The notes: generated by a model from the letters alone, not told the origin. A stretch of DNA of 23,979 nucleotides from Polyangiaceae bacterium (GCA_033763455.1 JANRKO010000067.1:1-23979); one strand, 5' to 3'. Positions 2 through 23,202 are shown, counted from the first letter of the stretch. Numbers and translations: made by a program.

Positions 2-176
2 GGCCAGATCCCCTCGACCCTCGACAAGGTCTGCCTCGAGGCGGGAATCCCGACTCCGACCGCGCCATCCCAGGCGGAGAGAAGGGCGGCCAAGGCAAAC
101 CGAACAACCATCACCCGCCTGAGAAAAAAAGCTCCAAAACCGGAGTCACAACAACATTTCCCTTGACCACACTCAT
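2..176 (+). mobile_element. Probable right end of an insertion sequence: 3' end of an ORF running in from the window edge (2-166, ...KKAPKPESQQHFP*) plus presumed terminal repeat
   Basis: The frame is open from the edge to TGA at 164-166. The adjacent IS91-like transposase loses homology abruptly at about 176 (RYL* instead of RYHGV). Family not recognisable. Confidence 0.4.
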
Positions 177-627
177 AGATACCGCATCAGGTGAAAACGC
201 GGTGGAGGGATGGCGGCGATGAGGCGAGCGATGAGGTCTTGGCCCTCGAAGAGCACGGCGCGAGTGCCGTCTTTCCAGACGGACTTGAGCGTGAGCTCGA
301 AGCGGCCATCGGAGCGCTCTTCGAGACGGTCTTGGGCCACGGGGGGCCGGGTGATGTAACGGCAGAGGCGCTCGAGTTGGCGGCGGTCGCGGCCGTCGAC
401 GCGCTGTTTGGCAAAGAGGCTGATGCCGGAATGCCGCAGGTGAGATAGGCGTCCATCTCCTCCACCACGAACTTTGGCAATCCGCCGAGCTCTTCGAGCC
501 GCTCGCGGAACGGGGGCCAATGCTCGGCCACTGCCTGGTAGAGCACCGTTTGCTCCGGTTTGCGACGAGCGTAGCCGTCGCTGCGAGCGGCAGCAGCATG
601 GCCGTGAGCGAGCGCGGGGTGCCCCAT
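173..627 (-). pseudogene. IS91/ISCR-like rolling-circle (HUH) transposase remnant; internally deleted, frameshifted and 3'-truncated
   Basis: N-terminal part in one frame (GYARRKPEQTVLYQAV...LPKFVVEEMDAYLTCGI), C-terminal Y2_Tnp part in another (GISLFAKQRVDGRDRRQLERLCRYITRPPVAQDRL...LIARLIAAIPPPRFHLMRY). Junction near 423-436; Zn-finger and HUH core missing. Confidence 0.88.
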
Positions 628-666
628 CGGGGGCGCTCATCGAAAGGAGCGTGCCAACTCTGTCGG

Positions 667-792
667 AGCGCGATTAGGCGCTGTAGAGGTGTGCTCCGGT
701 GTTTCCTAGGGTGTCCGGGTTAGCCAGTGGCCGCCACCTGATTGGGCGTCGTGCCTCCTCTGTGCTTTGCGGTAAGGTGCGGCCTAACACCA
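667..792. repeat. Non-coding region upstream of the IS91-like tnp, copy 1 of a diverged ~126-bp repeat
   Basis: Aligns by eye with 14603-14729: first 33 nt 30/33 identical, last 74 nt 55/74 ungapped. Confidence 0.85.
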
Positions 793-6400: not shown

Positions 6401-6406
6401 TACCTA

Positions 6407-6636: not shown

Positions 6637-6649
6637 CCGCGCCCCAAAC

Positions 6650-6726
6650 GCGCCCGTAGCTCAGTTGGATAGAGCGTCGGTCTACGGAACCGAAAGTCGG
6701 AAGTTCGAATCTTTCCGGGCGCGCCA
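6650..6726 (+). tRNA. tRNA-Arg (anticodon ACG)
   Basis: Acceptor stem GCGCCCG/CGGGCGC, D-arm TAGCTCAGTTGGATAGAGC, anticodon arm TCGGT-CTACGGA-ACCGA (ACG at 6684-6686), GTTCGAATC T-loop, encoded CCA. Confidence 0.98.
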
Positions 6727-6817
6727 GCAAACCCACCCTCCTAGCCGGGCCGGGTGAATCGGTCGCTGCCGAGCAGCTCGGTTGACCTGAGCGATCCTGC
6801 CGTTCCACTCTCTCGGC

Positions 6818-7741: not shown

Positions 7742-7750
7742 AGCGAAGGG

Positions 7751-10608: not shown

Positions 10609-11553
10609 ATGTGGCAGGCTCGGCGCGTGATTCGGCACTGGTGGTGGCTACTTGTGTTGGCGGTGGGGCCGCTTGAGCTCGGGGCGCATCTGTTCTTCTC
10701 CCGTCGAGCACCAGGCTTGGACGATTATCGTGCGCTACAAGCTCGCGTGACGGCGCTGAGAAAGCCTGGGGATGTTGTGATCATCGCGCCGCGTTGGGCC
10801 GAACCGATAGCGCGCACGGCTTGGGGAGACGCGCTCCTGCCGATCGCTGAGCTCGGGCGTCTGGATCTCGCTCGTTTTGAACGAGTAGTGTTGGTAACCA
10901 GCATGGGTCAGGTGGCCCCCGAGCTATCAGGGTTTGCTCGCCTAGTGCGAGAAGCGCACGGGCCTTTCGTCGTGGAAGTCCTGAAGAATCCTGGCTTTGC
11001 ACCAGTAAAAGCGGACCTCAACGAACGCGTTGTTCCGGAGCTCCTCGCGGTGGCGGTGGTGCAGGGATCGGGGGAGCGCTCGCCGTGCATTTGGAGTGAT
11101 TCTGCAGTGGTGCGCACAGGTGGGCTTGGTGGCCCGGCGGCTCTTCCGCGCGAGCGTTTTCAATGTGTGGGTGGTGAAGATAGGTTTGTGGGGATCAGCA
11201 TCTTGGATGATCAAGAGTTTCGTCCGCGCCGTTGCATATGGGCGCACCCTCCGGATGGGGGCTATTTGGAGTTGAGCTTCAGCAAGGTCCCCCGCGGGCG
11301 TGCCGTGATTGGAGCTGCGGGCCTTTCTTACTTGTTGACACGGGATGGTGTTGGTTCAGATGTTAGCTTGGAAGTGTTAGCTGATGGCGTTTCGCTGGGT
11401 ACCCACCGTGAGCGGGACACGGAGGGTTGGCAGGGTTTTCGCTTTGAGCTGCCCGGCTCTTCCCAAGAATCCTCGGAAGTTGAGCTCACCTTTCGAGTTT
11501 CGAGCGTTAAGGCTGAGAATCGGGACTTCTGCTTCCAAGCGGAGGTCCGATGA
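10609..11553 (+). CDS. Membrane-anchored hypothetical protein with C-terminal beta-sandwich (carbohydrate-binding-like), coupled to the GT39 gene
   Basis: N-terminal transmembrane segment, CIWAHPP motif, ATGA overlap with the next gene. Confidence 0.72.
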   Translation: MWQARRVIRHWWWLLVLAVGPLELGAHLFFSRRAPGLDDYRALQARVTALRKPGDVVIIAPRWAEPIARTAWGDALLPIAELGRLDLARFERVVLVTSMGQVAPELSGFARLVREAHGPFVVEVLKNPGFAPVKADLNERVVPELLAVAVVQGSGERSPCIWSDSAVVRTGGLGGPAALPRERFQCVGGEDRFVGISILDDQEFRPRRCIWAHPPDGGYLELSFSKVPRGRAVIGAAGLSYLLTRDGVGSDVSLEVLADGVSLGTHRERDTEGWQGFRFELPGSSQESSEVELTFRVSSVKAENRDFCFQAEVR

Positions 11554-13271
11554 GGCGCGCTCCTTGGGTGCACATGGGCATTGCGGCGGGCCTCAGCTTG
11601 GCCTTTACGGCAGTACTCCTTCTGACGAGCGCACCTCTCGGCTATGCGCGCGACGAAGGCTTCTATTTTCAAGCGGCCAGCAGCTACGAACAATGGTTTT
11701 CGATTCTGCTACAAGAGCCGGGGGCGGCCTTGCAGCGGCACGTTGTGGATCGTTATTGGTCAGTGAATAGCGAACACCCCGCGTTCATGAAATCCTTGTT
11801 CGCGCTTTCTCACCACTTCCTATTCGAGAAGTGGGGTGTCTTTAGCACTCCCGGGATCAGCTTCCGCTTCCCGGCGATGCTGCTTTCCGGGCTCGGAGTG
11901 GGCTTTTTGTACCTTTGGGGGAGCGAAACAGTTGGAGGCGCGGCGGCGTTGGTGGCAGCGCTCTTGTTTGCCGTCATGCCCCACGTGTTTCACCACGCAC
12001 ACTTGGCGTGTTTCGATATGCCAGTGGCCGCTCTTTCGCTTTTTACGGCCTATGCGTATTGGAAGTCTCTCCGACGCGGGAGCTTTGCGGGCATGTTGTG
12101 TGTGGGGTTGCTGTATGGCCTTTTCCTCAACACCAAACACAACTCTTGGCTATTTCCGTTTGCCGCACTGGCTCATAGCTTGTGCCTCAACCATCGTGCA
12201 TTGTTTGCGATCTTCGTTGGAGCTTTTGCCTCCTGGGGAGCGTATCCGAAGGCGAAGCTGGAGCGCATTTCTGGGCAAATTTGGCCTTGGCGTTTCCCTC
12301 CGGCGCTCCTTGGGATCCTACTTATTGGCCCCCTGGTGTTCTTCCTTACGTGGCCGTGGATTTGGTTCGAAACGGTGCCACGCCTGCGAGCTTACGCAGC
12401 TTTTCACCTGGGCCATGTGTACTACAACATGGAATTCTTGGGCCAAACCTATTGGAAGCCCCCCATGCCGCATGGTTACGCGTGGGTGATGACGCTCGGT
12501 ACGGTGCCGCTTGTCACGCTCACACTTTTCACGGTGGGTTTGGTCGTATTTTTCGTGCGGCAATGGCCTGCGCGCGGGAGCAAGCTCTTCGGAGCCAGTG
12601 CCCGATTGGCTAGGATACCTATGGGGTCGCCGCGATCGGCGGTGGTGCTTTGGATCTTAAGTGTGCTCGTCAACTACGCACCCTGGTGGTCGAGCGATAC
12701 GCCGATCTTTGGAGGCACGAAGCATTGGCTAACGGCCTATCCTTTCATGTGCCTTGTGGCTGGCGTTGGAGTTAGAAAGGTGTTGGCGTTGGCCACTCGT
12801 GCCGAAGTACGCCCAATCCACTATTGGGCGCGAGCCGCGAGTCTATCTCTCTTCATCCTGGTCGGGCCATTTGTGATGACTTGGCACAGCTTTCCGTTCG
12901 GCTTGAGCGCTTACACCCCACTTGTGGGGGGCGCGTCAGGCGCGGCAAATCTCGGCCTAAACCGCACGTTTTGGGGCTACACGTCGGCGAGCCTGTTTGA
13001 GCCCATGAATCGCTTGGCTCCCCCCTCCGCCCGCGTTTACGTGCACGATACGGCCCTTCAAAGTTGGGACATGCATTGGAAGGATGGCCAGCTTAGGCGC
13101 GATCTTTTCGGAACCTTGAACATCGCAAGATCAGATCTTGCGCTTTTCCACCACGAGCCGCACATGCAGCGCGTTGAATATCAGATCTGGAGCGCTTACG
13201 GCACGGCGCAGCCAACGGACATAATTCTGTTTGATGGCGTGCCCGTGGTGTGGCTTTATAAGCGCCCGTAG
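11550..13271 (+). CDS. ArnT/PMT-like (GT39/GT83, GT-C fold) membrane glycosyltransferase
   Basis: ARDEGFY acidic motif after TM1, EHPAFMK, FRFP, HAHLACFD, NTKHN, many transmembrane segments. Confidence 0.88.
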   Translation: MRRAPWVHMGIAAGLSLAFTAVLLLTSAPLGYARDEGFYFQAASSYEQWFSILLQEPGAALQRHVVDRYWSVNSEHPAFMKSLFALSHHFLFEKWGVFSTPGISFRFPAMLLSGLGVGFLYLWGSETVGGAAALVAALLFAVMPHVFHHAHLACFDMPVAALSLFTAYAYWKSLRRGSFAGMLCVGLLYGLFLNTKHNSWLFPFAALAHSLCLNHRALFAIFVGAFASWGAYPKAKLERISGQIWPWRFPPALLGILLIGPLVFFLTWPWIWFETVPRLRAYAAFHLGHVYYNMEFLGQTYWKPPMPHGYAWVMTLGTVPLVTLTLFTVGLVVFFVRQWPARGSKLFGASARLARIPMGSPRSAVVLWILSVLVNYAPWWSSDTPIFGGTKHWLTAYPFMCLVAGVGVRKVLALATRAEVRPIHYWARAASLSLFILVGPFVMTWHSFPFGLSAYTPLVGGASGAANLGLNRTFWGYTSASLFEPMNRLAPPSARVYVHDTALQSWDMHWKDGQLRRDLFGTLNIARSDLALFHHEPHMQRVEYQIWSAYGTAQPTDIILFDGVPVVWLYKRP

Positions 13272-13287
13272 CTAGCTGGGCTCGACA

Positions 13288-13569
13288 ATGCCTACGCCTT
13301 ATGCTGGAGTTGCTTTGGTGACAAACAAGGAGCGTGAAGCGTCGGACAAGCTCCCAGCCGGCGCTGTACCCAATGCGCCGCTGAGGACGGTCGGGCGTCG
13401 CCGACCAGGGGCAACGTTGGATCCCCAGCATGACACCAAAGAGAACGCGCGAGCGTGGCGGCGCGCGTTTCCGACCCCCTTTGTACCAAAGGGCGTGTAC
13501 CGTTTCACCAGCCACGAGGAGGCTGATGCTTGGCTATGGACGATGATCGCCCGCAAGCGGAGCCGTTAG
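13288..13569 (+). CDS. Small hypothetical protein, partner of the downstream nucleotidyltransferase (start uncertain)
   Basis: RTVGRR and PKGVYRFTSHEEADAW motifs; overlaps the NTase gene by 34 bp. Confidence 0.65.
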   Translation: MPTPYAGVALVTNKEREASDKLPAGAVPNAPLRTVGRRRPGATLDPQHDTKENARAWRRAFPTPFVPKGVYRFTSHEEADAWLWTMIARKRSR

Positions 13570-14033
13570 AGTCTCGCGAGCCTTCGCTCGAAGATTTGGT
13601 GGCCCTGTGCTCCAACCTGAATGCACGAGGAGCTCACTACATGGTGATTGGCGGGTTCGCCATGCGCGCCGCAGGGTACGATCGCCGCACGATGGACGTG
13701 GATTTGCTGATCGAAGCCACGCCCGAGAACGAGGCCAGCGTTATTGCCGCCGTCTCGGAATTGCCCGACCACGCCGCACGCGAGCTGCGCCCCGGAGAGA
13801 TCGCGGAATTTGTGGTCGTGCGCGTCGCCGACGAGATTGTTGTGGACCTCATGCAATCCGCATCGGGCTTTAACTACGAGGCAGCTTCTGGGGAGATCCT
13901 CTGGCGACAAGTATCGGGCGTCCAGATACCCTTTGCATCCCCCGCGCTACTACTCCGCATGAAGCGAGGCAGTGTCCGAGCCAAAGACCTGGCAGACGTT
14001 CAATTTCTAGAGCAGTTGGAGGCGAGTGGCTGA
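13536..14033 (+). CDS. Pol-beta-superfamily nucleotidyltransferase (DUF6036/AbiEii-like)
   Basis: YMVIGGFAM...RRTMDVDLLI catalytic motif, VVDL, C-terminal LLRMK...RAKDLADVQFL. Confidence 0.85.
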   Translation: MDDDRPQAEPLESREPSLEDLVALCSNLNARGAHYMVIGGFAMRAAGYDRRTMDVDLLIEATPENEASVIAAVSELPDHAARELRPGEIAEFVVVRVADEIVVDLMQSASGFNYEAASGEILWRQVSGVQIPFASPALLLRMKRGSVRAKDLADVQFLEQLEASG

Positions 14034-14245
14034 ATAGCGAGAGCTTGTCGCTCCGCCAATGGGGAATCGGTTGCGTCCTTTGGGGCACATCTTCCGGCTT
14101 TGCTGGGGGATGATTGCAATTGCAGCCTTCGGGTTTTGCGGCGATTGATTTCGCTCGGGTAGGGGTGCCGGCATACAACGTGCCAGGTTTCGTACGAGCA
14201 ACCGCTAGCGATCGCCACAGCCGTGCTTACGCTCTCCCGGTCATC

Positions 14246-14509
14246 ATGGGAGACAAACGGAAGTATTGGTTCCGTGCGAAAAAACACGGATGGGGATGGA
14301 CGGGTCCCGCCACGTGGCAGGGTTGGTTGGTGTTCGTTGGGTACCTTCTGCTGCTAACAGCAGCGATCCTTGCCACGCATCGTTGGGGAGCCGAGCTTCG
14401 TGGGGGAGTAGTGTGGTTCGTGCTAGGTATCTGGCTCGTGAGCTGGCTGGTTCTGGGGATTTGCTTCTGGAAGGGCGAGCCTCCGGATTCACGCTGGGGA
14501 GGAAAGTAG
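14246..14509 (+). CDS. Small two-TM hypothetical membrane protein
   Basis: YWFRAKKHGWGW..PATWQGW N-terminus, two hydrophobic segments, KGEPP..RWG end. Confidence 0.8.
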   Translation: MGDKRKYWFRAKKHGWGWTGPATWQGWLVFVGYLLLLTAAILATHRWGAELRGGVVWFVLGIWLVSWLVLGICFWKGEPPDSRWGGK

Positions 14510-14747
14510 CGGGGCGCGTGGGGCACGCTGAGGACACCAGACGCCGGCTAGCGCTTGATGCTGGGGAAACGATGCTTTGCACTCAGTCCAACGCTCCGTG
14601 TTAGCGAGATTAGGCCCTGTAGAGTTGTGCTCCGGGTTACCCGAGTGTTTGCGGTGTTAGCCAGTGACGGGCAGATGGATGGGCGCCGTGCCGCCGCTGC
14701 ACCTTGTGAGAAAGTGCGGCCAATCACCAAAAAAAGCACGGTTGCCC
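14504..14747 (-). mobile_element. Short remnant of a second IS91/ISCR-like element (upstream region plus possibly the first tnp codons)
   Basis: 14603-14729 is homologous to 667-792. A Tyr codon (PHAPRY) lies 97 bp from the repeat start, versus 96 bp for the conserved Tyr of GYARRKPE in copy 1. Confidence 0.6.
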
Positions 14748-14802
14748 CTACCCGCCGATGTAAGACATCTCAATGCGGCGCCGTGGGCCCGTGTGTGAGG
14801 CG
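14748..14802 (-). repeat. Displaced duplicate of the moaA 3' end (att-like direct repeat)
   Basis: 52/55 identical to 19316-19370; encodes the same ASHTGPRRRIEMSYIGG*. Confidence 0.95.
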
Positions 14803-14947
14803 ACCCGGGCGGAATTCGATCCTGCTGTGCTTTTGCAAAAAAATCGGGTCTGCAACACCCGCCTGTGCATACTTTATCGATGCAAGAATAAGTAATATCA
14901 ATGATCAGTTTGACAATATGAAGCTGAAGACTAGATCAGCTTCAGAA

Positions 14948-15313
14948 ATGTCGAAGCTCCCGACCGAATGTCCCGGCTGCGGGGAAGGGCTATTGGTCAC
15001 TCGCCTCACCTGTCCGGCGTGCGCGCTGCAAGTAGAAGGGCGCTTCGACCTGCCGGAACTTCTACGCCTCACTCGTGAAGATATGGAGTTCGTTCTCGAT
15101 TTTGTGCGCTGCTCCGGGAGCCTTAAAGATCTCTGCAAGGTTCGCGGCCTCAGCTACCCGACGATCAGGAATCGATTGAACGATGTCATCGACAAGCTCT
15201 CGGCGGAGAGCGACGGCTTGGAAACGCAGCGTCGAAAAATTCTCGACGCCGTCGCACAAGGCGAGCTCACGGTGAAAGAAGCGACTCGAAGATTGAAGGA
15301 GTTAGGTGCATGA
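14948..15313 (+). CDS. DUF2089 family protein (Zn-ribbon + HTH + SHOCT-like), putative regulator
   Basis: CPGCG...LTCPAC...VEGRF, F..CSGSLKDL...GLSYPTIRNRLND, C-terminal ILDAVAQGELTVKEA. Alternative start at 14918. Confidence 0.9.
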   Translation: MSKLPTECPGCGEGLLVTRLTCPACALQVEGRFDLPELLRLTREDMEFVLDFVRCSGSLKDLCKVRGLSYPTIRNRLNDVIDKLSAESDGLETQRRKILDAVAQGELTVKEATRRLKELGA

Positions 15314-15975
15314 ATACGAAGGAACAAGTGTTAGAAATGCTTTCGGCTGGAAGGATCACTTCTGCTGAGAGCGAAGAGTTGCTACTCGCCCTGAACGAAC
15401 CTCCACGTTCTTGGTGGCGCCGAATTCTCAATCCCTTCGAGGGCTTGAATGCAGTGCAAGCGCTGGCATGGGGTGTTCTTGGGGCGCTCGGTGGAATTGC
15501 CCTATCCCGTTGGAACGTGCGTTTCGATGGCGCGCTCGATCTACATCCGATCGCGAACGCGGTTTCCATTTCCGACGCTCTCGCCGATCAAGTCGTCGCG
15601 TGGCCGTTGACGGCTGCTGTGTTTTGGGGCGCGGCAAACATCTTGGCGCGGCAGCTGCGTTTCGTGGATTTTTTGGGCTACGTGGGAGTGGCGCGGCTGC
15701 CTTATTTGATCCCGGCGGCGGTGGCCGCGAGCATGAAAGATCAGCTGAGTGTTGCGCCTGAAAAGCTCATCGCGTCGCCGCCCCCGGGCCTCTTGCTTCT
15801 CTCCTTGGTGACGGTTCCTGTGGTTGTGTGGATGGTGACGTGGCTCTGGCAGGGCTTCCGTACAGCGTCAGGCTTGCGCGGTGCGAAGAGTGGGTTCTTG
15901 TTTGTTGGCGCGCTCGTGTTCGCAGAGGTGCTCTCCAAGTTGGCGCTTGGAGTGTTCAGCTTCGTGAGGTTCTAA
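15310..15975 (+). CDS. Yip1-like membrane protein with N-terminal SHOCT-like motif
   Basis: QVLEMLSAGRITSAESEELLLAL, LNPFE, RFDGALDLH, RFVDFLG...ARLPY, about five transmembrane segments; ATGA overlap. Confidence 0.78.
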   Translation: MNTKEQVLEMLSAGRITSAESEELLLALNEPPRSWWRRILNPFEGLNAVQALAWGVLGALGGIALSRWNVRFDGALDLHPIANAVSISDALADQVVAWPLTAAVFWGAANILARQLRFVDFLGYVGVARLPYLIPAAVAASMKDQLSVAPEKLIASPPPGLLLLSLVTVPVVVWMVTWLWQGFRTASGLRGAKSGFLFVGALVFAEVLSKLALGVFSFVRF

Positions 15976-15976
15976 G

Positions 15977-16435
15977 ATGGATGCGAGCGAAAATGCATTT
16001 CGACCGTGGCGTCGACTTCCGGCTCGCACCGTGGTCGAAGTTGTTGGCGAGGTTGCAGGGTGGGTCGGCTTCCTGGTGCTGCTGGGATCCATGATTTGGG
16101 GGTGGGCAGATGAGAGCGGACCGTACAGCGGGGCGGGACTTATGGGTTGTGCGCTCTATCTACTTGGTGCCTTTGCGGAACGATCGCCTCAACTCTGGCA
16201 CTTCCGACAAAGGCCGGCCGACATAGTTTCCCAATATCAGAACGGGCGGTCGGTGTTTGCGTGGATGAAAATCGGAGTGATTTGGATATCTCTCGCGCAG
16301 TCCTGCGGACCCGGGGGCAGCCTCTCAGGGGCCCCGCGCGAAATTCGGCTCGCTGTTACAGCACTCGCCGTCGTCCTCGTAGCCGTATGCTTTGCTAAGG
16401 TCTGCATTCACACCGTGCGGGTGCACAGGTCATGA
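15977..16435 (+). CDS. Membrane protein, diverged DUF1648-related paralogue 1
   Basis: Shares R.VVE.VGE, P..W.F and QYQN.RS...W.K with the next ORF. Confidence 0.7.
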   Translation: MDASENAFRPWRRLPARTVVEVVGEVAGWVGFLVLLGSMIWGWADESGPYSGAGLMGCALYLLGAFAERSPQLWHFRQRPADIVSQYQNGRSVFAWMKIGVIWISLAQSCGPGGSLSGAPREIRLAVTALAVVLVAVCFAKVCIHTVRVHRS

Positions 16436-16875
16436 CCTACACAGAAGATAGATCCAAACTCAAGTTTGAGGCTCCACGCAGCGTCGTCGAGATCGTTGGC
16501 GAAAGTTTGGGTGTGATCGGCTTGGTGGCGTTGGTGGGCGTTACAATTTGGGCTTGGCAAGGAGGGGGGAGCAGGATCACGCTGCTGATGTTTCTGGCGC
16601 CAGGCATCACTCTTTATGCCTTTATTTCTGTCATCGCGCTCTTTCCGCGGGTATGGAACTTTCCGGTCGAGTTAACTCCGGAGAATGTTACGTACCAATA
16701 CCAGAATACCCGTTCGCTCGTCACTTGGTTGAAGCCTGTGATTGTCTGGGGGTTCACCCACATGCAATGGTCAGCTACAGGCGGGGCCGGCCTCGGTGCG
16801 GCCTTTTTGCCACTTTTCGTCGGCAGCGTTGTTATCATTTTGGGTATCCATATTTGGAGAGGATGTCGAGTTTGA
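16432..16875 (+). CDS. Membrane protein, DUF1648-related paralogue 2 (lacks the PTHF loop)
   Basis: PRVWNFPVELTPENVTYQY matches PHAFNYPVQVTAANAPRLY of the next ORF; ATGA overlap. Confidence 0.75.
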   Translation: MTYTEDRSKLKFEAPRSVVEIVGESLGVIGLVALVGVTIWAWQGGGSRITLLMFLAPGITLYAFISVIALFPRVWNFPVELTPENVTYQYQNTRSLVTWLKPVIVWGFTHMQWSATGGAGLGAAFLPLFVGSVVIILGIHIWRGCRV

Positions 16876-16904
16876 TTGAAGTTAGAGACCACAACACCCG
16901 TTAA

Positions 16905-17426
16905 ATGATGAACTCTCGCCCGAAACTTGAAATACCCAGGACCAAGCTAGAAAATGTGGTCCGGGCTCTGAGCACGGTCTGCACTGTTGGTTTGGATCTT
17001 TATGCGGTGATCGTTCGGCGTCGCCTGCCCGAAGTTGTGCCCACACATTTCGGGGTTAGCGGTATTCCGAACGCGTGGGGCCCCAAATGGATCCTGTTTC
17101 TGGTGCCCGCATTGGCCACTCTCGCGTACCTTGCCATGATGCTGGTGGAGCGAGTCCCGCACGCGTTTAACTACCCAGTCCAAGTTACCGCGGCAAATGC
17201 TCCGCGCCTCTACCTGATTGCTCGACGCTGGTTAGGCATTATTGACCTTATCTGCGTCGCTGCGTTCGGTGTTGCCTTCCTGGCGTTGGTCGGGAGCCCT
17301 CTTAACGCGGCTAAAGGCTTACCGGGTTGGTACGTTCTTGTTGTATCCGGTTCGCTCACGCTAGCTGCCGTCGCTATGGTAGTGTCCTTGCTCCGAGCAG
17401 GTGCGCGTTCTTCACGTGAGAGTTAG
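16905..17426 (+). CDS. DUF1648 domain membrane protein (SdpI-related)
   Basis: LPEVVPTHFGVSGIPNAWGPK signature, RPKLEIPRT N-terminus, FNYPV. Confidence 0.88.
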   Translation: MMNSRPKLEIPRTKLENVVRALSTVCTVGLDLYAVIVRRRLPEVVPTHFGVSGIPNAWGPKWILFLVPALATLAYLAMMLVERVPHAFNYPVQVTAANAPRLYLIARRWLGIIDLICVAAFGVAFLALVGSPLNAAKGLPGWYVLVVSGSLTLAAVAMVVSLLRAGARSSRES

Positions 17427-17539
17427 CGAGGGTCAGATTATGCGACGGATGGCTAACGGCTTGTGAGTGTCGTTAATCGTTGTCGGTGAGCCCCTGCGGA
17501 AGCCCAAGGGCTGCCCAAGCACGCCTGCCACTCGCGGCT

Positions 17540-18613
17540 TCAGAACTCCGGCGACCAGGGTTGCTCGGAGCCTCCGGGAGGGGTGACGAACAACTGTAAC
17601 GCTATGTAGGGGCCTTTGGCTTGGAAGTAGAGCACTCGAATTTTATGCTGTCCCTGGTCTAACGTCACGGTGTTTGATTTGCTGGTAAGAGCGTGCACGC
17701 CGTCGTTGTTGACAATCAATTTTCCATCAACCCAGAGTAGGGAACCATCGTCCGAAGCCAAACGGAACGCGTATTCGCCTTGGACCTTTACCGAGAAGCG
17801 GCCCACGTAGTCGAGGGCGAACCACTGAAATCTCTCGGAAACTCCAGGAAAACCGGAGGTAAACCGGCGTTTCGAGATATTCAAAGCGTTTGTGTACATG
17901 ATCCCTTCTGCGACGCACCTTTGAATAGAGACAAGGCTCTTGGTGCCTTCGGGCAAGGAACAGAGGCTACCTTTAAGAGCAGCTTTCGTGTTGCCACCAA
18001 AAACCCCGACGCCGCTCACGATAGGCAGGGCCCGCCTGTGCCCTCCTAAAGTACCGAGCCCGCCACCGTCGACTCTTGGCTTCCCTCGGTAAGGGCCGGG
18101 GTATTCTTGAGCCTCGGCTTCAGTTCGCCAGGCTTTGTCTAATAGAACGATTTGCTCATCGTTTGATCGTTCTGGTTGCGGTACGGGCGACCTCGGGAAT
18201 GGAGCTTCATCAGGCGAAGTTGTTCGGTCCTTCTCCGGAGCAGTCGGTGTTGTCATTGAAACTGGAGGTTGCTTCACAGGAGATTGCTTCACAGGAGGCT
18301 CACTGATCCAGCCTGTGAAGTGCCCGACCAACAGCGCGACGGCTGCTGCCGCAGCAAGGCTTGAAGCCAGGCGAAACATCCGAAGTGAGCGGGGCTGGCC
18401 CCGCCGAGCTGAAGCGGAGGGGCGCGGCGGTGCCTCCTGGGTTGCCTTCTGCCTTTCCCCCCAATCAAAAAGGCCTATTTCAACCCGGCTGAGTCGCAGC
18501 AAGGCTATAGCAGCCTGTGGCTCCGCTTCGATCAGGCGCTCAAGCTTCTTAGCAAGCTCGGGCCTCAAATTTTCGTCAAAGTAGCCTTGTAACGTTTCTG
18601 CAATTGCTTTCAT
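17540..18613 (-). CDS. Putative transmembrane anti-sigma factor with C-terminal PA14 domain
   Basis: Short helical N-terminus, single TM (LAAAAAVALLVG), Pro-rich linker, PA14 motifs GEYAFRLASDDGSLLWVDGKLIVNNDGVH and GQHKIRVLYFQ; ATGA overlap with the sigma gene. Confidence 0.82.
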   Translation of the reverse strand: MKAIAETLQGYFDENLRPELAKKLERLIEAEPQAAIALLRLSRVEIGLFDWGERQKATQEAPPRPSASARRGQPRSLRMFRLASSLAAAAAVALLVGHFTGWISEPPVKQSPVKQPPVSMTTPTAPEKDRTTSPDEAPFPRSPVPQPERSNDEQIVLLDKAWRTEAEAQEYPGPYRGKPRVDGGGLGTLGGHRRALPIVSGVGVFGGNTKAALKGSLCSLPEGTKSLVSIQRCVAEGIMYTNALNISKRRFTSGFPGVSERFQWFALDYVGRFSVKVQGEYAFRLASDDGSLLWVDGKLIVNNDGVHALTSKSNTVTLDQGQHKIRVLYFQAKGPYIALQLFVTPPGGSEQPWSPEF

Positions 18614-19131
18614 CGGTTGAGCCCTTCCAGCTGAGTTGAGACACATTCTGCCAAGCGCGCGCGAATTCGGTTGAGCGTCACGGAGATGGTGGACGGGGTG
18701 GCTTTCAGCTCGCGAGCAATCTCATTTACTGGCACCAATCTCCGGTAGCGCAGGTCCACAATCTGTGACCACTTGACCGGCAGCTTATCAATGCATTGAG
18801 CTAGGGCGGTTTCCTGGGAATCCCGGTTGGATACTTCAGAATCGAACGCCGCATCTACGACATCCAGCGCACGTTCGCTCAATGCCCAGCGTTTGCGCTC
18901 GCGTGCAATTTCTAAACACTTGCGGCGCGCCGTTTCTCGCGCGTACGCCCAGAAGGCATCGAGCTCCAGGCCTGCACCGATTCGATCCGTCAAAATTAGT
19001 GCCACTTCTTGAACGATGTCCTCCGCGAGAGCGCGGTCACGCAGAATGGTGAGCGCATACGCAAGCAACGCCTTTCGGTACGCTTGAATCAAATCGAGCT
19101 GGCACAGCTTCGGTTGGATGAATTCGTTCAC
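18610..19131 (-). CDS. ECF sigma factor (sigma70 family)
   Basis: LLAYALTILRDRALAEDIVQEV, FWAYARETARRK, region 4 ALAQCIDKLP...LRY...EIARELK...LNRIRARLAECV. Confidence 0.92.
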   Translation of the reverse strand: MNEFIQPKLCQLDLIQAYRKALLAYALTILRDRALAEDIVQEVALILTDRIGAGLELDAFWAYARETARRKCLEIARERKRWALSERALDVVDAAFDSEVSNRDSQETALAQCIDKLPVKWSQIVDLRYRRLVPVNEIARELKATPSTISVTLNRIRARLAECVSTQLEGLNR

Positions 19132-19315
19132 GCTAGAGAGTGCGCCCCAAGGTCGGATCTTAACCGAAAAACATGAAAGGGCTGAATCTCAGCCAAAATG
19201 GGGTGGGCTCGATCTGAGGTTTCCGGAGCAAAGCGACCGTAGGTCTGGGGGCCGGCTGTTGAAAGGAGACCTACTGGCAAAATTAGAGTCGTGCGGATCC
19301 GTAATCCACGGTTCG

Positions 19316-19370
19316 CTACCCGCCGATGTAAGACATCTCAATACGCCGACGTGGGCCCGTGTGTGAGGCG
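19316..19370 (-). repeat. moaA 3' end, second copy of the att-like direct repeat
   Basis: 52/55 identical to 14748-14802. Confidence 0.95.
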
Positions 19371-20314
19371 CGGATCTCCGAATATCGATCTCCCCGACGT
19401 AGCCACGTTTCTTCAATCAGCGCTCGAAGCTCCGCGTCCGTTTTGCCTGACCGGAGCCAGCTTTTGAGATCCAGCCCGCTGGTTGCGAATAAACACGTGT
19501 AGAATTTCCCCTCCGCACTCAAGCGCCCACGAGAGCACTGCCCGCAGAAAGGTTGGCTCACACTTGCAATCACCCCAACTTCACCTGTGCCGTCGCCATA
19601 GCTGAAGCGCTGAGCCACGCCGTCGGTAGCCGGGCGAATTTCCGTGAGGGTGCCTGTTGTTCTTAGTTTCTCCAGAATTTCTGCCTGAGTTACGACTTCA
19701 TCGAGGCGCCAACCGTTGGTGGTGCCCACATCCATGTACTCAATGAAACGCACCACGTGCCCGGTGCCTTTGAAGCGCTGCGCAATCGGCAGGATCTCTT
19801 GGTCGTTCACGCCGCGCTTCACTACCGTGTTGATCTTGATCGACCCGAACCCCGCCTTCTCAGCGGCTTTAATTCCAGCCAATACATCATTCGGCGTGTA
19901 GTTGGCGTCACACATCGCTTGGAACGTGATCGGATCCAGGGCATCCAGGCTCACGGTTACTCGATCCAAACCGGCTGCTTTCAGATCTGCTGCGTGTTTG
20001 GGTAAAAGCACGCCGTTGGTGGTGAGCGCCAAATCCAAGTCGCCGAGCTGGCGTAGCATTTGGATAAGGCGAGGCAATTCAGCACGAAGGAGCGGTTCAC
20101 CACCGGTTATCCGCACCTTGTGAACGCCGAGAGCCACACACTGAGCCGCTACGCGCGTGAGCTCCTCAAAACTGAGTACTTCACTCCGCGGGAGGAAACC
20201 AAAATCTTCCCCAAAGCGTTCGCGGGGCATGCAGTAGCGACAGCGAAAATTACAGCGATCCGTGACGCTGATGCGGAGGTCACGAAACGGGCGCTGCAGT
20301 TGGTCGGTGAGCAT
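19316..20314 (-). CDS. moaA: GTP 3',8-cyclase MoaA
   Basis: LRISVTDRCNFRCRYC radical-SAM motif, RITGGEPLLR, RFIEYMDVG, FCGQCSR..LSAEGKFYTCLF, C-terminal MSYIGG. Start set at MLTDQL. Confidence 0.97.
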   Translation of the reverse strand: MLTDQLQRPFRDLRISVTDRCNFRCRYCMPRERFGEDFGFLPRSEVLSFEELTRVAAQCVALGVHKVRITGGEPLLRAELPRLIQMLRQLGDLDLALTTNGVLLPKHAADLKAAGLDRVTVSLDALDPITFQAMCDANYTPNDVLAGIKAAEKAGFGSIKINTVVKRGVNDQEILPIAQRFKGTGHVVRFIEYMDVGTTNGWRLDEVVTQAEILEKLRTTGTLTEIRPATDGVAQRFSYGDGTGEVGVIASVSQPFCGQCSRGRLSAEGKFYTCLFATSGLDLKSWLRSGKTDAELRALIEETWLRRGDRYSEIRASHTGPRRRIEMSYIGG

Positions 20315-20336
20315 GGATCCGAAACGCGCTGGGTGT

Positions 20337-20924
20337 TCAGAAGGGTGTCGCCCCGGGACATTCACCGAGAGTGCCGTAGCCGACACCGTTGGCCGCAGCG
20401 GTGCAATCGCTCGCGTATGTTTTGCCGTCACAGCCACAAACCGGCGCGTAAATCTCGGTGCAAATCTGTGGGCGTTTCTTGCACGTGCTGGTGGCGTCTG
20501 CGGCACCGCAAGCTCCCACACCGGCGTAAGCGCAATATTCGTCTGCTGCGCACGTGTTTCCAGCCCTCGCTCCACACGGCGTGCCTGTGCCCGGTTCGAC
20601 GCACGCACGTTTGGTGCACCCGAGCACGCCGTTAGTGCAAACACAGGTATTACACCCGTCGGGAGACGGAATAGCGCTTGCACCATGCGCGTAGTCGACG
20701 CCATTCACCGAGCAGCTTTTGCCATTGCTCCCGCCGCTAGCGACCGCTCCCCCGGAGTTGCTGGTGCCTCCGGTGCCATTCTTAGCGCCTCCTATGCCCA
20801 TGGCTGCACCACCTGGGTCTTTGCTGGGAGCAGAGTCGAAGGAACCACCACACGCGATGAGCGTTGAAAGTGCACAAACAGCCGAGGCTGAGCAGACGAC
20901 ACAGGAACGCCGAAGACGAAACAT
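20337..20924 (-). CDS. Cys-rich lipoprotein with pacifastin/VWC-like and Kazal-type protease-inhibitor modules
   Basis: Lipobox LIAC, Gly/Ser linker, DGCNTCVCTNGVLGCTKRAC, and ICTEIYAPVCGCDGKTYASDC...GEC. Confidence 0.85.
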   Translation of the reverse strand: MFRLRRSCVVCSASAVCALSTLIACGGSFDSAPSKDPGGAAMGIGGAKNGTGGTSNSGGAVASGGSNGKSCSVNGVDYAHGASAIPSPDGCNTCVCTNGVLGCTKRACVEPGTGTPCGARAGNTCAADEYCAYAGVGACGAADATSTCKKRPQICTEIYAPVCGCDGKTYASDCTAAANGVGYGTLGECPGATPF

Positions 20925-21082
20925 GCGCGTAACTATAGCAAGCCTGTGCCCCTTGCGGGGTGGCAATCCATCCAGGCACATTTGAACGCGAAGGGGGCTC
21001 TTTTAGTGGGTTTTCCCGCCTTGGCCGCACTCGCCATGGAAACAGCTGTATTGTGCGCAAGCGGTGCTATGGTCCGCCCGAA

Positions 21083-21970
21083 GTGAAGCTCTACGATTTT
21101 GACGGTATCGACGATCGACTTTCCCTCATTCCGCTCGCTGCACGGCGAGCGCTCGATCACGCGGGCTTGAAGCTCTCGTTAGCTGCGTGGTCCAACCTCT
21201 CGTTGGAGAGCAGGCGGCAGATCACACGCGCGGGGAGTGCCGAGGAAGTGGAGTTAAGCGGCGTTGTTCCCCTAATCCGAGCGGCCACGCCTCCACCCGA
21301 AGTGATCGAGCCCGCGTTCGATCCTTCACCCGCAGAGGTTCCGCAAGCTGTAGTGGATGGATTTGGGGTTGAACGTCCTGTACCGCTCAGCGTCTGGTCA
21401 ACGCTACCTGCGCTCGAGAGGTATGCCCTGGCCAAGGTTGCGGCAAGCGGAAAACATGCGCGTATTCTCGCCGCTTACAAGGAATTGGTTGGACACAGTG
21501 CTGTCTCTACTCACCTTGCGCCCAAAGGTGGCGTTTGGATGGTGGATGTTTCCAAAAAGGACGCCACGCAGCGGCGTGCCGTTGCCGAGACACTCGTGTC
21601 AATGAATCGCGAGGCTTTTCAACGCTTGGTCCAGGCAGATACGCCCAAGGGCGATGTGCTTGGCACCGCTCGCCTGGCTGGCATTATGGGAGCCAAGCAG
21701 ACGAGCGTCTTGGTGCCCTTGTGCCATCCGGTGGCGCTCACGCGATTGGAAGTCCTGCTAGACGTGGAGGATTCGTCGCAGTCGGTGCGCATCCAGGCAA
21801 CCGTCGAAGCATTTGACCGCACGGGCGTCGAGATGGAGGCAATGACGGCGGCGTCCGTTGCCGCACTCACGGTGTACGATATGTTAAAGGCCTTCGATCA
21901 TTCGATGATCATCGGGCCCACGAGGCTCTTGGCCAAGTCGGGAGGAAGGTCTGGCGAGTTCGTAAGATGA
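21083..21970 (+). CDS. moaC: MoaC (cyclic pyranopterin monophosphate synthase) fused to an N-terminal nitrate-reductase-associated (NarM-like) domain
   Basis: C-terminal STHL...MVDVSKK, KGDVLGTARLAGIMGAK.TS.LVPLCHP, TGVEMEAM, TVYDMLKA, KSGGRSG. N-terminal IPLAARRALDHAGLKLSLAAW...W..L..LERYALAK. GTG start at 21083. Confidence 0.92.
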   Translation: MKLYDFDGIDDRLSLIPLAARRALDHAGLKLSLAAWSNLSLESRRQITRAGSAEEVELSGVVPLIRAATPPPEVIEPAFDPSPAEVPQAVVDGFGVERPVPLSVWSTLPALERYALAKVAASGKHARILAAYKELVGHSAVSTHLAPKGGVWMVDVSKKDATQRRAVAETLVSMNREAFQRLVQADTPKGDVLGTARLAGIMGAKQTSVLVPLCHPVALTRLEVLLDVEDSSQSVRIQATVEAFDRTGVEMEAMTAASVAALTVYDMLKAFDHSMIIGPTRLLAKSGGRSGEFVR

Positions 21971-22585: not shown

Positions 22586-22975
22586 TCACCACACGCTTGA
22601 GGGGCCGAGAAAATCGTGAATTTTAGTATCCTTGGTCAATAAGGGAACACCAAGCAGCGTTGCGGTTGAAACGATGACGCGGTCAGCCGGGTCGGTGTGG
22701 TCCCAGGCCAAGCTCAAGCTATGCAACCAGATATCGGTTCCTACAGGAAGCAGCTTAACGACTCCACCCCTCTCGATTCGTGCGGCGAACTCCTCAATGG
22801 GAAGTGGCAATTCAAGCTTGCCGCGCCTGACCTTCACGCCCAGCTCCCAAACAGAAATCGCGCTCGCAAAACCGCCCTTGCGCTCCATCTCAGCCAACAC
22901 GTTCGACGCGGTAAGCGAGAGTTGCTGAGGATCGAGCGCCCACCACAAAAGCGCATGGGTATCCAGAACAATCAA
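22586..22975 (-). CDS. vapC: PIN-domain VapC toxin
   Basis: IVLDTHALLWW, SAISVWEL...K...GKL, HTDPADRVIVSTA, LLTKD. TTG start overlaps the antitoxin stop. Confidence 0.92.
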   Translation of the reverse strand: MIVLDTHALLWWALDPQQLSLTASNVLAEMERKGGFASAISVWELGVKVRRGKLELPLPIEEFAARIERGGVVKLLPVGTDIWLHSLSLAWDHTDPADRVIVSTATLLGVPLLTKDTKIHDFLGPSSVW

Positions 22976-23202
22976 GACTCGCTCCACTCGTCGCTGGTGG
23001 GCTCAAGAATATCGCCGCGATAGATCACCCGACCTCGAACGTCTGCAAAGAGGCTCGCCGTACTCACTCGACTTCGGATCGGCGTGATTTCAAGAACTGG
23101 ACGGTGGTTATCCGTCACGACCAGGGTCTCGCCCGTTTCCTCGACTCGGCGGAAATACTCCAACATTTTCGCCTTCAGCACGCTCTTCGACACGGTCCTC
23201 AT
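22972..23202 (-). CDS. Phd/YefM-family antitoxin
   Basis: MRTVSKSVLKAKMLEYFRRVEETGETLVVTDNHRPV, C-terminal GDILEP...W; immediately upstream of vapC. Confidence 0.9.
   Translation of the reverse strand: MRTVSKSVLKAKMLEYFRRVEETGETLVVTDNHRPVLEITPIRSRVSTASLFADVRGRVIYRGDILEPTSDEWSES

Follow-up and report, generated by a model that had tools for sequence, protein, structure and literature searches.

An island without a recombinase, bounded by copies of the moaA 3' end, in a Polyangiaceae genome

Several integrated elements, among them e14 and phage 21 in icd and the elements in guaA, dusA and prfC, supply a replacement 3' end to the gene into which they insert. Such a replacement and the native end that it displaces differ mainly at synonymous sites, and the icd, guaA, dusA and prfC elements encode their own integrase beside the att site. 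For CR1/ISCR1, insertion by homologous recombination has been proposed, a mechanism reportedly treated by Toleman et al. in 2006.

For elements without an integrase of their own, the part of PMC5704250 used here gives the definition of CIMEs and the accretion model. In the sections of PMC9376610 drawn on here, CR2-sul2 is described as an IS91-like unit that lies between att copies derived from the end of guaA and is moved in trans by the integrase of GIsul2, and the GIsul2/CR2-sul2 arrangement at the 3' end of guaA comprises three att sites in tandem. The same sections place CR1 between partial duplications of the class 1 integron 3'-CS and raise the question of whether CR/ISCR-type units move by rolling circle and homology or by borrowed site-specific recombinases (PMC9376610).

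The moaA locus and its inserted DNA

The window analysed here is a whole contig of 23,979 nucleotides from a Polyangiaceae bacterium (GCA_033763455.1, JANRKO010000067.1). The features on which the analysis turns are as follows, with positions counted from the first nucleotide of the window.

164..792, minus strand: IS91-like copy at the start of the contig, degraded and with an internal deletion (Y2_Tnp, 3.8e-14, with frameshifts)
11550..13271, plus strand: glycosyltransferase (PMT_2 family) gene, the native downstream neighbour of moaA (Pfam PMT_2, 2.7e-10)
13272..14593, plus strand: segment A, inserted DNA outside the repeat pair, missing between the glycosyltransferase gene and moaA in three of three congeners
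13288-13569, plus strand: 93-aa ORF of segment A
13530-14033, plus strand: DUF2204/AbiEii-like nucleotidyltransferase of segment A (Pfam DUF2204, 2.2e-4)
14114-14509, plus strand: 131-aa membrane protein of segment A
14594..14736, plus strand: solo, left-truncated IS91-like (Y2 transposase) end, transposase-upstream side (nhmmer E 4.8e-15)
14737..14802, minus strand: distal repeat copy, comprising the displaced moaA 3' fragment (14748-14802), an 11-nt spacer and CACGGTT
14803..19306, no strand: island proper, 4.5 kb, without a recombinase, bounded by the repeat copies
14921..15313, plus strand: DUF2089 regulator with zinc ribbon, HTH and SHOCT-like tail (Pfam, 1.4e-16 and 9.6e-11)
15310..15975, plus strand: Yip1-like membrane protein (weak Pfam Yip1 match)
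15977..16875, plus strand: two small paralogous membrane proteins (15977-16435 and 16432-16875; ORF calls)
16905..17426, plus strand: DUF1648 membrane protein (Pfam, 5.7e-13)
17540..18646, minus strand: anti-sigma-like membrane protein with a C-terminal PA14 domain (Pfam PA14, 2.2e-17)
18610..19131, minus strand: ECF sigma factor (Pfam Sigma70_r2, Sigma70_r4_2 and Sigma70_ECF)
19307..19370, minus strand: proximal repeat copy, comprising the intact moaA end (19316-19370), a 2-nt spacer and CACGGTT
19316..20323, minus strand: moaA (GTP 3',8-cyclase), intact, with C-terminal GG (Pfam Radical_SAM, 2.5e-36; Mob_synth_C, 7.6e-37)

With Rfam at gathering thresholds, the only match in the window is a tRNA-Arg (6650-6726).

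In all three same-genus genomes (G001, G002 and G003) the glycosyltransferase gene is convergent with moaA at a distance of 27-35 nt, and in three other genera it lies within 1.5 kb of moaA; given this adjacency in the three congeners, the interval found here is an insertion. The inserted DNA at the moaA 3' end proposed in the initial annotation is thus confirmed against relatives, since all three congeners have the site without the insert, and the proposed restoration of the gene also stands, moaA being intact to its C-terminal GG and sharing 73% identity with its same-genus orthologues across residues 4-335. The extent of the insertion required revision: a repeat-bounded insert of 4.5 kb is present as described, whereas the full insertion relative to the congeners is 6.0 kb (13272-19315), with an extra 1.5-kb segment beyond the distal repeat that ends in the solo IS91-like end. 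The neighbour of the displaced moaA fragment is not native downstream DNA but a truncated IS91-like end, followed by another 1.3 kb of foreign genes, and likeness to the relatives' spacer is limited to about 9 nt beside the glycosyltransferase stop codon.

The direct repeat measures 55 nt (14748-14802 and 19316-19370) and is identical at 52 positions. Translated from the minus strand, each copy gives ASHTGPRRRIEMSYIGG-stop, which corresponds to the last 17 moaA codons and the stop codon. The three mismatches, 14775/19343 (G/A), 14778/19346 (G/C) and 14781/19349 (C/A), all occupy synonymous third positions of Arg codons (P = 0.033 for three of three by chance), giving CGG CGC CGC in the displaced copy and CGT CGG CGT on the intact gene. 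A dead fragment is expected to gain changes at the approximately 40 non-synonymous sites as well, and therefore both copies diverged inside working genes, in agreement with the earlier suggestion that each had been shaped as MoaA coding sequence. CGC makes up 45% of the Arg codons in core genes, and the use of the commoner Arg codons by the displaced copy fits, weakly, a tail supplied by the element. The identical blocks are 21 nt long on the gene-internal side (14782-14802), as reported at the outset, and 27 nt on the stop side, the latter being the longest. When a 2-nt indel is allowed, the BLAST alignment of the copies lengthens to 66 nt (91% identity) and takes in the CACGGTT motif that had likewise been noticed past both stops (14737-14743 and 19307-19313; the letters at 19306-19314 are CCACGGTTC). 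Past these 66 nt, the flanks are no more alike than shuffled sequences, with a score of 15 on the right side (reached by 114 of 500 shuffles) and 14 on the left side (311 of 500). The boundary at 14802/14803 is sharp, and the repeat spans from this gene-internal boundary to just past the stop, as in target-gene-restoring elements. The whole assembly (92 contigs, 6.56 Mb, 93.7% complete) contains two copies; a search of the window revealed no third copy above shuffles, beside the glycosyltransferase gene or elsewhere, and no outer att copy adjoining that gene.

Logan contigs from two runs span the junctions independently of the window contig, at 14661-14948 (run X2) and 19282-19607 (run X1). 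A single low-depth X1 contig, with a depth of 3.4 and 36 letters on its short side, joins 14666 to 19307; this skip exceeds the repeat spacing by 72 nt, which is how far 14666 lies from CACGGTT. An allele without the island would be expected to show this value, and the contig may represent such an allele. No circle junction was found among the run contigs, which were searched as contigs only. An X2 joint of 13466 to 20012, with 20 letters on its short side, was left out of the evidence, as were the parts of the stretch that lack cover in runs X2-X4.

Island cargo and the IS91-like stump

Seven ORFs fill 14803-19315, and Pfam searches of all seven found no recombinase or transposase family, which upholds the absence of a recombinase noted initially. 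The DUF2089 regulator has a 71% identical orthologue on G003:C295 and G002:C402, and the Yip1-like protein, matched in 11 of 121 family genomes, has orthologues with 66-67% identity at another locus in G002 and G003. The two small paralogous membrane proteins have no Pfam family; a single relative, 36% identical, adjoins the Yip gene in G003. The anti-sigma-like gene overlaps the ECF sigma gene, and the C-terminal 129 aa of its product are 81% identical to a protein on G003:C7. The 5' part of the ECF sigma gene, together with 41 nt upstream, shows 90% DNA identity to G003:C7 and G002:C106, where the gene copies carry an internal deletion of about 289 nt. The two modules of the island thus have orthologues at other loci in sister species (66-71% amino-acid identity), and the cargo has a GC content of 56.5%, compared with 58.6% for core genes; with this ordinary divergence and near-core GC, the cargo looks like relocated native DNA and not like a foreign element. 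Such islands can therefore consist of relocated native regulatory modules instead of foreign cargo; the modules here are an ECF sigma/anti-sigma pair and the membrane cluster with the DUF2089 regulator.

Segment A is single-copy in the assembly, and no recombinase was found in the two of its ORFs searched with Pfam. The solo IS91-like end beside it is 143 nt long, contains a hairpin motif of about 45 nt and lies 0-11 nt from the displaced moaA fragment, the transposase gene being missing there. It is 74-80% identical to ends at window positions 658-792, C66:53902-54035 and C90:26804-26933, which lie upstream of Y2_Tnp remnants, and belongs to an end family with 19 copies in the genome. The copy at the contig start, which served as the reference for the solo end, is 88-91% identical to the C66 and C90 copies, and the IS91 family assignment is based on the Y2_Tnp copies at window positions 164-640 and on C66, C13 and C48. 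All IS91-like copies examined are frameshifted, deleted or otherwise degraded. A profile built from 12 origin-type ends (oriIS) matched 15 copies across the genome and none in the window, where the best nhmmer E was 2.5. Among the transposase-upstream IS ends, only that at moaA has a gene-tail copy alongside; a 30-nt pair on C39 was rejected as such a copy because it covers a gene start. In G001-G003 the end family has only two weak matches, both in G003, and IS91-like sequence was found neither at the relatives' moaA loci nor in a 4.24-kb indel of G002 that contains, at an unrelated locus, a decayed 48-aa moaA tail.

Similar islands in the genus and at distant moaA loci

A second integrase-less island in the same genome stands at the 3' end of aceE, bounded by a 120-nt repeat with two differences, both synonymous, and it is absent in three of three relatives. 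An IS91-like transposase fragment (C63:41400-41531, 81% identical to C66:53430-53562) lies within 2 nt of the aceE repeat, the order being gene-repeat-IS-cargo-repeat, and in both islands the IS has its transposase-upstream (terminator) side turned toward the 3' end of the gene fragment. In G002 and G003 a 45-nt repeat is found at the 3' end of a histidine-kinase gene; this locus was rejected as a clean empty site, as the difference between the two genomes is a gene-body deletion in G003. None of four recombinase-less islands in the genus contains a recombinase. All three repeat pairs contain CCACGGT, and two of them also CCACGGTTC, the genome frequencies being 172 and 9 per Mb, respectively; for the two pairs that had no part in framing the motif, a repeat as long as theirs would contain CCACGGT by chance with a probability of about 0.02 and 0.008. 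A genome scan for CACGGT site pairs with similar flanks returned mostly paralogous repeats and no more islands. We consider it decidedly unlikely that the genus carries small recombinase-less cassettes that enter housekeeping-gene 3' ends (moaA, aceE, histidine kinase) via a shared core CCACGGT(TC), each restoring its gene with a synonymous tail and all moved by one enzyme encoded elsewhere, possibly an IS91-like Y2 HUH transposase; if true, native regulatory modules would be shuffled by an integron-like system directed at gene tails.

Integrase-bearing islands of the working type occur in the same genome beside tRNA-Gly and tRNA-Leu repeats, and Phage_integrase (PF00589) has 12 matches on ten other contigs and none on the moaA contig. 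No integrase linked to moaA repeats is present in the 93.7%-complete assembly, and no moaA-linked element was found in the three congeners. The search for displaced moaA 3' fragments in other genomes that had been suggested as a check returned none at 80 distant metagenome moaA loci (52-61% identity), where the best local score was 16 versus about 47 calculated for a repeat of the present type. The idea of the initial annotation that the repeats are the attL/attR pair of an integrase thus found no backing in the assembly or at these loci. Neither the exact 27-mer of the repeat in metagenome contigs nor a degenerate pattern of the moaA tail plus AACCGTG in genome contigs gave a match, near relatives possibly being absent from either collection. 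In agreement with the first impression that moaA was not a familiar target, a literature search turned up no publication in which moaA is given as an attachment site.

Accounts of the insertion and known systems

We tentatively favour an account in which the 4.5-kb recombinase-less island entered the moaA 3' end by Campbell-type, conservative site-specific recombination, with the enzyme encoded elsewhere. We infer a circular intermediate, such an enzyme and the following order of events. An incoming circular DNA with its own copy of the moaA 3' end would have recombined reciprocally with the resident moaA 3' end, leaving moaA intact with a hybrid tail and, at the opposite end of the island, the displaced tail of 55 nt. 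Another functional moaA allele would be the source of the incoming copy, which would account for differences between the two copies at synonymous sites only. The enzyme would act in trans, in the way that an integrase moves decayed CIMEs or the IS91-like CR2-sul2 unit, and the locus would be an accretion of moaA, att, island, att and the remnant of an IS91-like unit (the solo end and segment A), the outer att copy of which would since have been lost. In favour of this account are the insertion itself, the extent of the repeat, the synonymous divergence and, weakly, the Arg codon usage, the bridged junctions with the possible island-free allele, the recurrence at aceE and the histidine kinase, the shared CCACGGT motif, the CR2-sul2 and CIME precedents and the integrase-bearing islands beside tRNA repeats. 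Against it are the absence of a linked integrase, of displaced tails at the 80 distant loci and of an outer att copy, the native look of the cargo, and the single contig of low depth behind the possible island-free allele. As the islands of the genus stand at different genes, several integrases, or one with loose specificity, would be needed, and the IS91-like remnants that adjoin a repeat copy in both islands of this genome are not predicted by an integrase model.

The aceE island and these adjoining remnants make homology-driven, ISCR-like insertion a serious rival, possible although somewhat unlikely in our judgement. An IS91-like rolling-circle element downstream of moaA would have overrun its terminator end and taken the last 55 nt, and the DNA with the captured tail would later have joined the resident moaA by RecA, with no dedicated integrase. 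The truncated IS91-like end beside the moaA fragment and the IS fragment beside the aceE repeat suit such a capture, as does the terminator side turned toward the gene fragment in both, the side expected for read-through; given that the 6.56 Mb contain about 60 IS fragments, two IS abutments at eight repeat boundaries are estimated to be far above chance. The differences between the copies resemble allelic polymorphism, and the genus is home to the cargo. An IS91-like hairpin end (C66:48474-48536) also lies beside an ATPase gene, the orthologue of which in G003 is a neighbour of the DUF2089-Yip cluster. The terminator-side arrangement is also that of CR1 with 3'-CS and of CR2 with attLR in the sections used of PMC9376610, and the order at aceE is exactly that predicted by a single crossover of a [tail-IS-cargo] circle. 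At moaA, however, the IS remnant lies outside the repeat-bounded interval, whereas a single crossover would place it inside, beside the intact gene, so that a second event would be needed. Capture is also countered by the lack of an origin-type IS end in the window, the degradation of each IS91-like copy examined and a longest perfectly identical block of just 27 nt; it leaves the common CCACGGT(TC) motif unexplained, and rolling-circle movement of CR elements is itself unproven according to the same sections (PMC9376610).

A single arrival of the 6.0-kb block (13272-19306) in the glycosyltransferase-moaA spacer, whether through illegitimate insertion or because a related strain supplied the allele in a replacement, would make the moaA fragment a relic of the earlier location of the block. 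This is unlikely, although the entire 6.0 kb is extra relative to the three same-genus genomes, hardly any of their spacer is recognisable, no third repeat copy was found and the decayed moaA tail in the G002 indel shows such a tail elsewhere. It does not explain why a block with a moaA tail should have landed at moaA once more, precisely at CACGGTT and with its orientation unchanged. Judging by the X1 joint, the polymorphic unit may be just the 4.5-kb part, and the aceE island is a clean repeat-to-repeat insertion relative to relatives. That the fragment is the relic of a moaA paralogue, or that the repeat is an assembly artefact, is highly improbable and largely refuted by the sharp repeat edge and by run contigs bridging both junctions. 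The contig comes from a fragmented metagenome-type assembly with co-occurring strains, run contigs being from 99% to less than 90% identical to the stretch, and this would suit an artefact; both junctions are nevertheless spanned by contigs assembled independently from two runs, and the 27-nt and 21-nt identical blocks are shorter than usual assembly words. As to a paralogue, 95% identity over 55 nt gives way to an abrupt and total loss of similarity, and hence there is no gradual decay.

In conclusion, the moaA locus shows gene-tail restoration in a clean form that can be checked, at a target for which the literature search found no description, and the recurrence at aceE, with IS91-like stumps at both islands, offers a natural test bed for the question of CR/ISCR movement. 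With integrase-borne islands the locus shares the gene-end repeats and the absence from the site in relatives, without an internal tyrosine or serine recombinase; as in icd-type elements, the tail copies differ at synonymous sites, and unlike them no integrase lies beside the repeat. Of the features of an ISCR/IS91 capture unit, the adjoining terminator-side IS end is present and the oriIS end is not. Like CIMEs, as presented in the part used of PMC5704250, the island retains both repeat copies without integration or transfer genes and stands in tandem with another decayed element. Unlike CIMEs, for which a related ICE or IME with an integrase would occupy the same site, it has no cognate ICE/IME integrase in the genome, the three congeners or the 80 distant loci, no outer att copy, and cargo that resembles genus-native DNA and not ICE remains. 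With CR2-sul2, as described in the sections used of PMC9376610, it shares the absence of its own integrase and an IS91-like transposase-upstream side adjoining an att-like copy of a housekeeping-gene end; the IS91-like part here is, in contrast, a 143-nt stump, and the island proper is without IS. At GIsul2 the core measures 8 bp and the neighbouring island carries the integrase gene, whereas here there is no integrase and the repeat is 55-66 nt (PMC9376610, same sections). As in CR1/ISCR1, so far as those sections describe it, a duplicated segment brackets the inserted genes and the IS91-like terminator side adjoins one copy; the aceE island fits the CR1 order and the moaA island does not, because the moaA IS lies outside the bracket, and unlike in CR1/ISCR1 the duplicated segment is the end of a chromosomal housekeeping gene.

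The moaA repeat pair and the inserted DNA

The window forms an entire contig of 23,979 nt in an assembly of 6.56 Mb (92 contigs, 93.7% complete), and contains a direct repeat of 55 nt (14748-14802 and 19316-19370) whose copies agree at 52 of 55 positions. A minus-strand gene of 335 codons (19316-20323) ends in the right-hand copy, and its product is assigned as MoaA because it matches Radical_SAM (2.5e-36) and Mob_synth_C (7.6e-37); both copies encode ASHTGPRRRIEMSYIGG followed by the stop codon. As the initial annotation had proposed, all three differences (14775/19343, 14778/19346 and 14781/19349) are synonymous, one at the third position of each of three Arg codons in a row (displaced copy, CGG CGC CGC; gene copy, CGT CGG CGT); three differences in 54 coding positions would all land on third positions with a probability of 0.033. 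When a 2-nt indel is allowed in BLAST, the repeat reaches a CACGGTT motif just beyond each stop codon (14737-14802 against 19307-19370, 66 nt, 91% identity), and the flanks beyond it are at shuffle level, the observed local scores being reached by 114 and 311 out of 500 shuffles. Two copies of the repeat exist in the whole assembly and no third, partial one in the window, and the junctions are bridged independently by Logan contigs of two public sequencing runs (X2, 14661-14948; X1, 19282-19607). The two-copy count, the flank shuffles and the bridging contigs thus bear out the repeat as real and correctly placed: the bridged junctions speak against an assembly artefact and the flanks, no more alike than shuffles, against a decaying moaA paralogue, and even taken jointly the two explanations are highly improbable.

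Seven ORFs fill the island between the repeat copies (14803-19306):

14921-15313, DUF2089 zinc-ribbon/HTH regulator
15310-15975, Yip1-like membrane protein
15977-16435 and 16432-16875, two small paralogous membrane proteins
16905-17426, DUF1648 membrane protein
17540-18646, anti-sigma-like membrane protein with a PA14 domain at its end, on the strand of the ECF sigma gene and overlapping it
18610-19131, ECF sigma factor, on the strand opposite to the DUF2089, Yip1 and DUF1648 genes

None of the seven matches a recombinase or transposase family, in agreement with the earlier description of an interval lacking a recombinase. The G+C content of the island genes, 56.5%, is near that of the flanking core genes, 58.6%.

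MoaA is present in 40 of 41 related genomes, and in all three same-genus genomes (the congeners G001, G002 and G003, with MoaA 73% identical to that of the window) the order is GH, a 318-aa protein, a PMT_2 glycosyltransferase and convergent moaA, followed by moaC and moaE. The stop codons of the glycosyltransferase gene and moaA are 27-35 nt apart in these three genomes; three other genera also have the glycosyltransferase within 1.5 kb on the downstream side of moaA, which brings the total to 6 of 29 loci, each examined with 1.5-kb flanks only. This adjacency is thus ancestral and the window DNA between the two genes is an insertion, which relative to the congeners spans 13272-19315 (6.0 kb). 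The proposed insertion at the moaA 3' end therefore stands, the congeners being without it and the interval not being core sequence in these relatives, but its proposed size of 4.5 kb does not, as the insertion includes segment A, the extra DNA from the glycosyltransferase stop codon to the displaced moaA fragment. Segment A holds a 93-aa ORF, a DUF2204/AbiEii-like nucleotidyltransferase and a 131-aa membrane protein, followed by a repeat at 14594-14736.

One X1 contig, of depth 3.4 and with 36 letters on its short side, connects 14666 with 19307 (the letters between are not known). It skips 4640 nt, compared with a repeat spacing of 4568 nt, and the 72-nt excess equals the stretch between 14666 and CACGGTT. 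Its simplest reading is a related strain whose diverged IS end stands directly before the moaA tail, with the 4.5-kb island absent; being a single contig of low depth, it is only a hint of such an island-free allele. A circle junction was not reported among the run contigs, which as contigs are insufficient to exclude one.

Further features were observed in the window:

6650-6726 (+), tRNA-Arg(ACG) gene, between a PDZ/thioredoxin gene and a coiled-coil protein gene
20337-20981 (-), 214-aa secreted protein with Kazal and cysteine-rich modules, occupying the divergent moaA-moaC intergenic region
20960-21970 (+), MoaC fused to an N-terminal Nitr_red_assoc (PF09655) domain, with relatives aligning only from residue 42
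22586-22987 (-), PIN-domain (VapC-like) gene, downstream of moaE

Since the congener moaA loci examined have a moaA-moaC gap of about 137 nt and no match to the Kazal protein, 20337-20981 is probably another lineage-specific insertion. In a further related genome (G017:C75, L020) a second copy of the final 30 nt of moaA follows in tandem right after the stop codon, with four differences and a 2-nt spacer, which may be a recombination scar or replication slippage.

Cargo, IS91-like remnants and similar islands

Matches to the Yip-like protein occur in 11 of the 121 family genomes; those in G002 and G003 are 66-67% identical, and G001 (95% complete) has none. The DUF2089 and Yip genes and a PA14-fused small membrane protein lie together on short contigs in G003 and G002 and adjoin an AAA ATPase, the orthologue of which in the window's genome (91% aa; C66:48675-49874) is preceded by a solo IS91-like hairpin end. 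The ECF/PA14 counterpart lies on G003:C7 and G002:C106, where the sister ECF genes have an internal loss of about 289 nt and the flanking genes have orthologues on contigs C39 and C31 of the window's genome. Because these counterparts sit at other loci in G002 and G003, the island is put together from two genus-native modules that are found elsewhere in the sister species. The 5' part of the window ECF gene with 41 nt upstream (18971-19172, 18621-18681) shows 90% DNA identity to G003/G002, compared with 69-77% for neighbouring core genes, which suggests that the ECF/PA14 module was recently exchanged.

The 14594-14736 repeat is 74-80% identical to C66:53902-54035, C90:26804-26933 and window 658-792, each of which immediately precedes the 5' end of a degraded transposase gene of the IS91 family (Y2_Tnp). 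Comparison of copies delimits an element of about 2 kb (C66:52058-54077), the transposase-downstream end of which has 15 copies in the genome and the transposase-upstream end, with a hairpin of about 45 nt, 19 copies; many upstream ends are solo. GGTCAAG is found at the terminus of two full copies and CAAG or AAAG before two downstream ends, which fits the tetranucleotide rule known for IS91. Next to the moaA fragment stands only a stump of the element, which is truncated at 14594 on the left, lacks the last ~45 nt on the right and is fused directly to CACGGTT. Degraded copies include window 164-792 and 14594-14736, C66:52058-54077 and C90:26804-28159, among others; the assembly showed no intact Y2_Tnp transposase gene, and the window no origin-type end (best E 2.5).

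A scan of the window's genome for direct repeats of 35-400 nt spaced 0.5-60 kb gave the first three of the following islands, and the last two entries are from the congeners:

C47:20108-37984, classical island of 17.7 kb, tRNA-Gly(CCC) 3'-end repeats, Phage_integrase gene beside the tRNA-proximal repeat
C59:46826-79047, classical island of 31.9 kb, tRNA-Leu(GAG) 3'-end repeats, Phage_integrase gene beside the tRNA-proximal repeat
C63:41278-45278 (L069:2279-6279), second integrase-less island, 3.9 kb, at the aceE 3' end
L061 (G003:C7) 7051-7095 and 8834-8878, histidine-kinase repeat, with the same region in L062 (G002:C106)
L044 (G002:C4) 5940-10176, 4.24-kb indel of G002 relative to G003

At aceE (PDH E1) the last 39 codons are duplicated as a 120-nt repeat (41278-41397 and 45159-45278), with sharp boundaries ending one base past the stop codon and two differences, GCC/GCT and CCT/CCG, both at synonymous third positions (P=0.109). 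The copies enclose IS debris including an rve fragment, a 220-aa ORF, an NmrA-like gene and a LysR regulator. In all three congeners conserved downstream DNA begins about 1.1 kb from the aceE stop codon; because this equals its distance from the second copy in the window's genome, the aceE island is likewise a repeat-to-repeat insertion, absent in G001-G003. A 133-nt fragment of the same IS91-like transposase gene (C63:41400-41531; 81% identical to C66:53430-53562) starts 2 nt after the first aceE copy with its 5' side toward aceE. At moaA and aceE alike, one repeat copy thus has an IS91-like remnant directly at its stop-codon side, oriented in tandem with the gene tail.

At the histidine-kinase locus of G003 and G002, two 45-nt copies of the gene tail (84%) flank a 1.7-kb segment, which contains a 548-aa ORF of no known family and no recombinase; the ECF/PA14 remnant homologous to the window island lies about 1 kb beyond it, and G003 has lost most of the kinase gene relative to G002. 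The G002 indel is bounded by an imperfect repeat of 11-12 nt, through which the end of an Exo_endo_phos gene is restored with synonymous changes. Besides secreted-protein genes, the indel contains a decayed 48-aa piece of the moaA 3' end (9921-10064, minus strand), and Pfam gave no recombinase in it.

The 9-mer CCACGGTTC occurs at window 19306-19314 and inside both histidine-kinase repeat copies, and CCACGGT occurs inside both aceE repeat copies. Their genome frequencies on both strands are 9 and 172 per Mb, respectively, and the chance of CCACGGT in a repeat of the given length is about 0.008 and 0.02 for the two pairs from which the motif had not been framed. These three cases are suggestive of a common recombination core; no further CACGGT-centred repeat pairs were found in the scan.

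Possible routes of insertion

The order of gene, repeat, cargo and repeat is the structure of a Campbell-type insertion. In the moaA and aceE islands together, five of five repeat differences are synonymous, which argues against a target duplication made on site and then left to decay, because a dead 55-nt fragment of equal age should also have changed at its roughly 40 non-synonymous sites; since the differences are of coding type, the incoming DNA would have brought a gene tail from another working allele. As the catalyst, a site-specific recombinase encoded elsewhere and acting on the moaA repeat copies is our preferred reading, held tentatively and at somewhat less than an even chance, because the motif common to the repeats, their sharp limits and the tandem arrangement at the window locus (moaA, repeat, island, repeat, IS91-like unit) fit it. 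The assembly has 12 integrase matches, all on contigs other than that of the window. The trans-acting recombinase is made less probable by the lack of a linked integrase at any of the four islands (moaA, aceE, histidine kinase and G002 indel), by their differing targets and by the lack of a remaining outer att copy in the window. The initial annotation had proposed to look for displaced moaA 3' fragments and adjacent integrases in other genomes; 0 of 80 distant metagenome moaA loci (52-61% identity) show a displaced tail, which weakens the recombinase reading further.

Homologous recombination of DNA that had gained a gene tail by IS91/ISCR-type read-through is possible, if rather unlikely: the IS stumps abut the repeats in fitting orientation, the cargo is native to the genus and the order of the aceE island is exactly as predicted, but the moaA stump lies outside the repeat bracket, so that two events are needed, and the shared motif is left unexplained. 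A single transfer of the 6-kb block is considerably more doubtful. A common machinery that shuffles native cassettes into gene tails in the genus is a possibility.

Relation to known systems

Elements that restore a gene tail, att-flanked islands without an integrase and IS91-like units with gene-tail copies at their ends have all been described already. CIMEs are defined by retained attL and attR with lost integration genes, and show tandem accretion at gene ends (PMC5704250); the IS91-like CR2-sul2 unit has an att copy on the upstream side of its transposase gene and attR at its other boundary, and the GIsul2 integrase both excises and integrates it in recA-deficient cells, and CR1 between 3'-CS duplications offers a precedent for insertion by homologous recombination (PMC9376610). 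Within the portion of the literature on moaA with integration, integrase or prophage that was covered, moaA was not found as an attachment site, so that the suggestion of a target not previously described holds to that extent, for an otherwise known island design. In contrast to GIsul2, the moaA island has no linked integrase; like the CIMEs and CR2-sul2, it lies in tandem with another unit.
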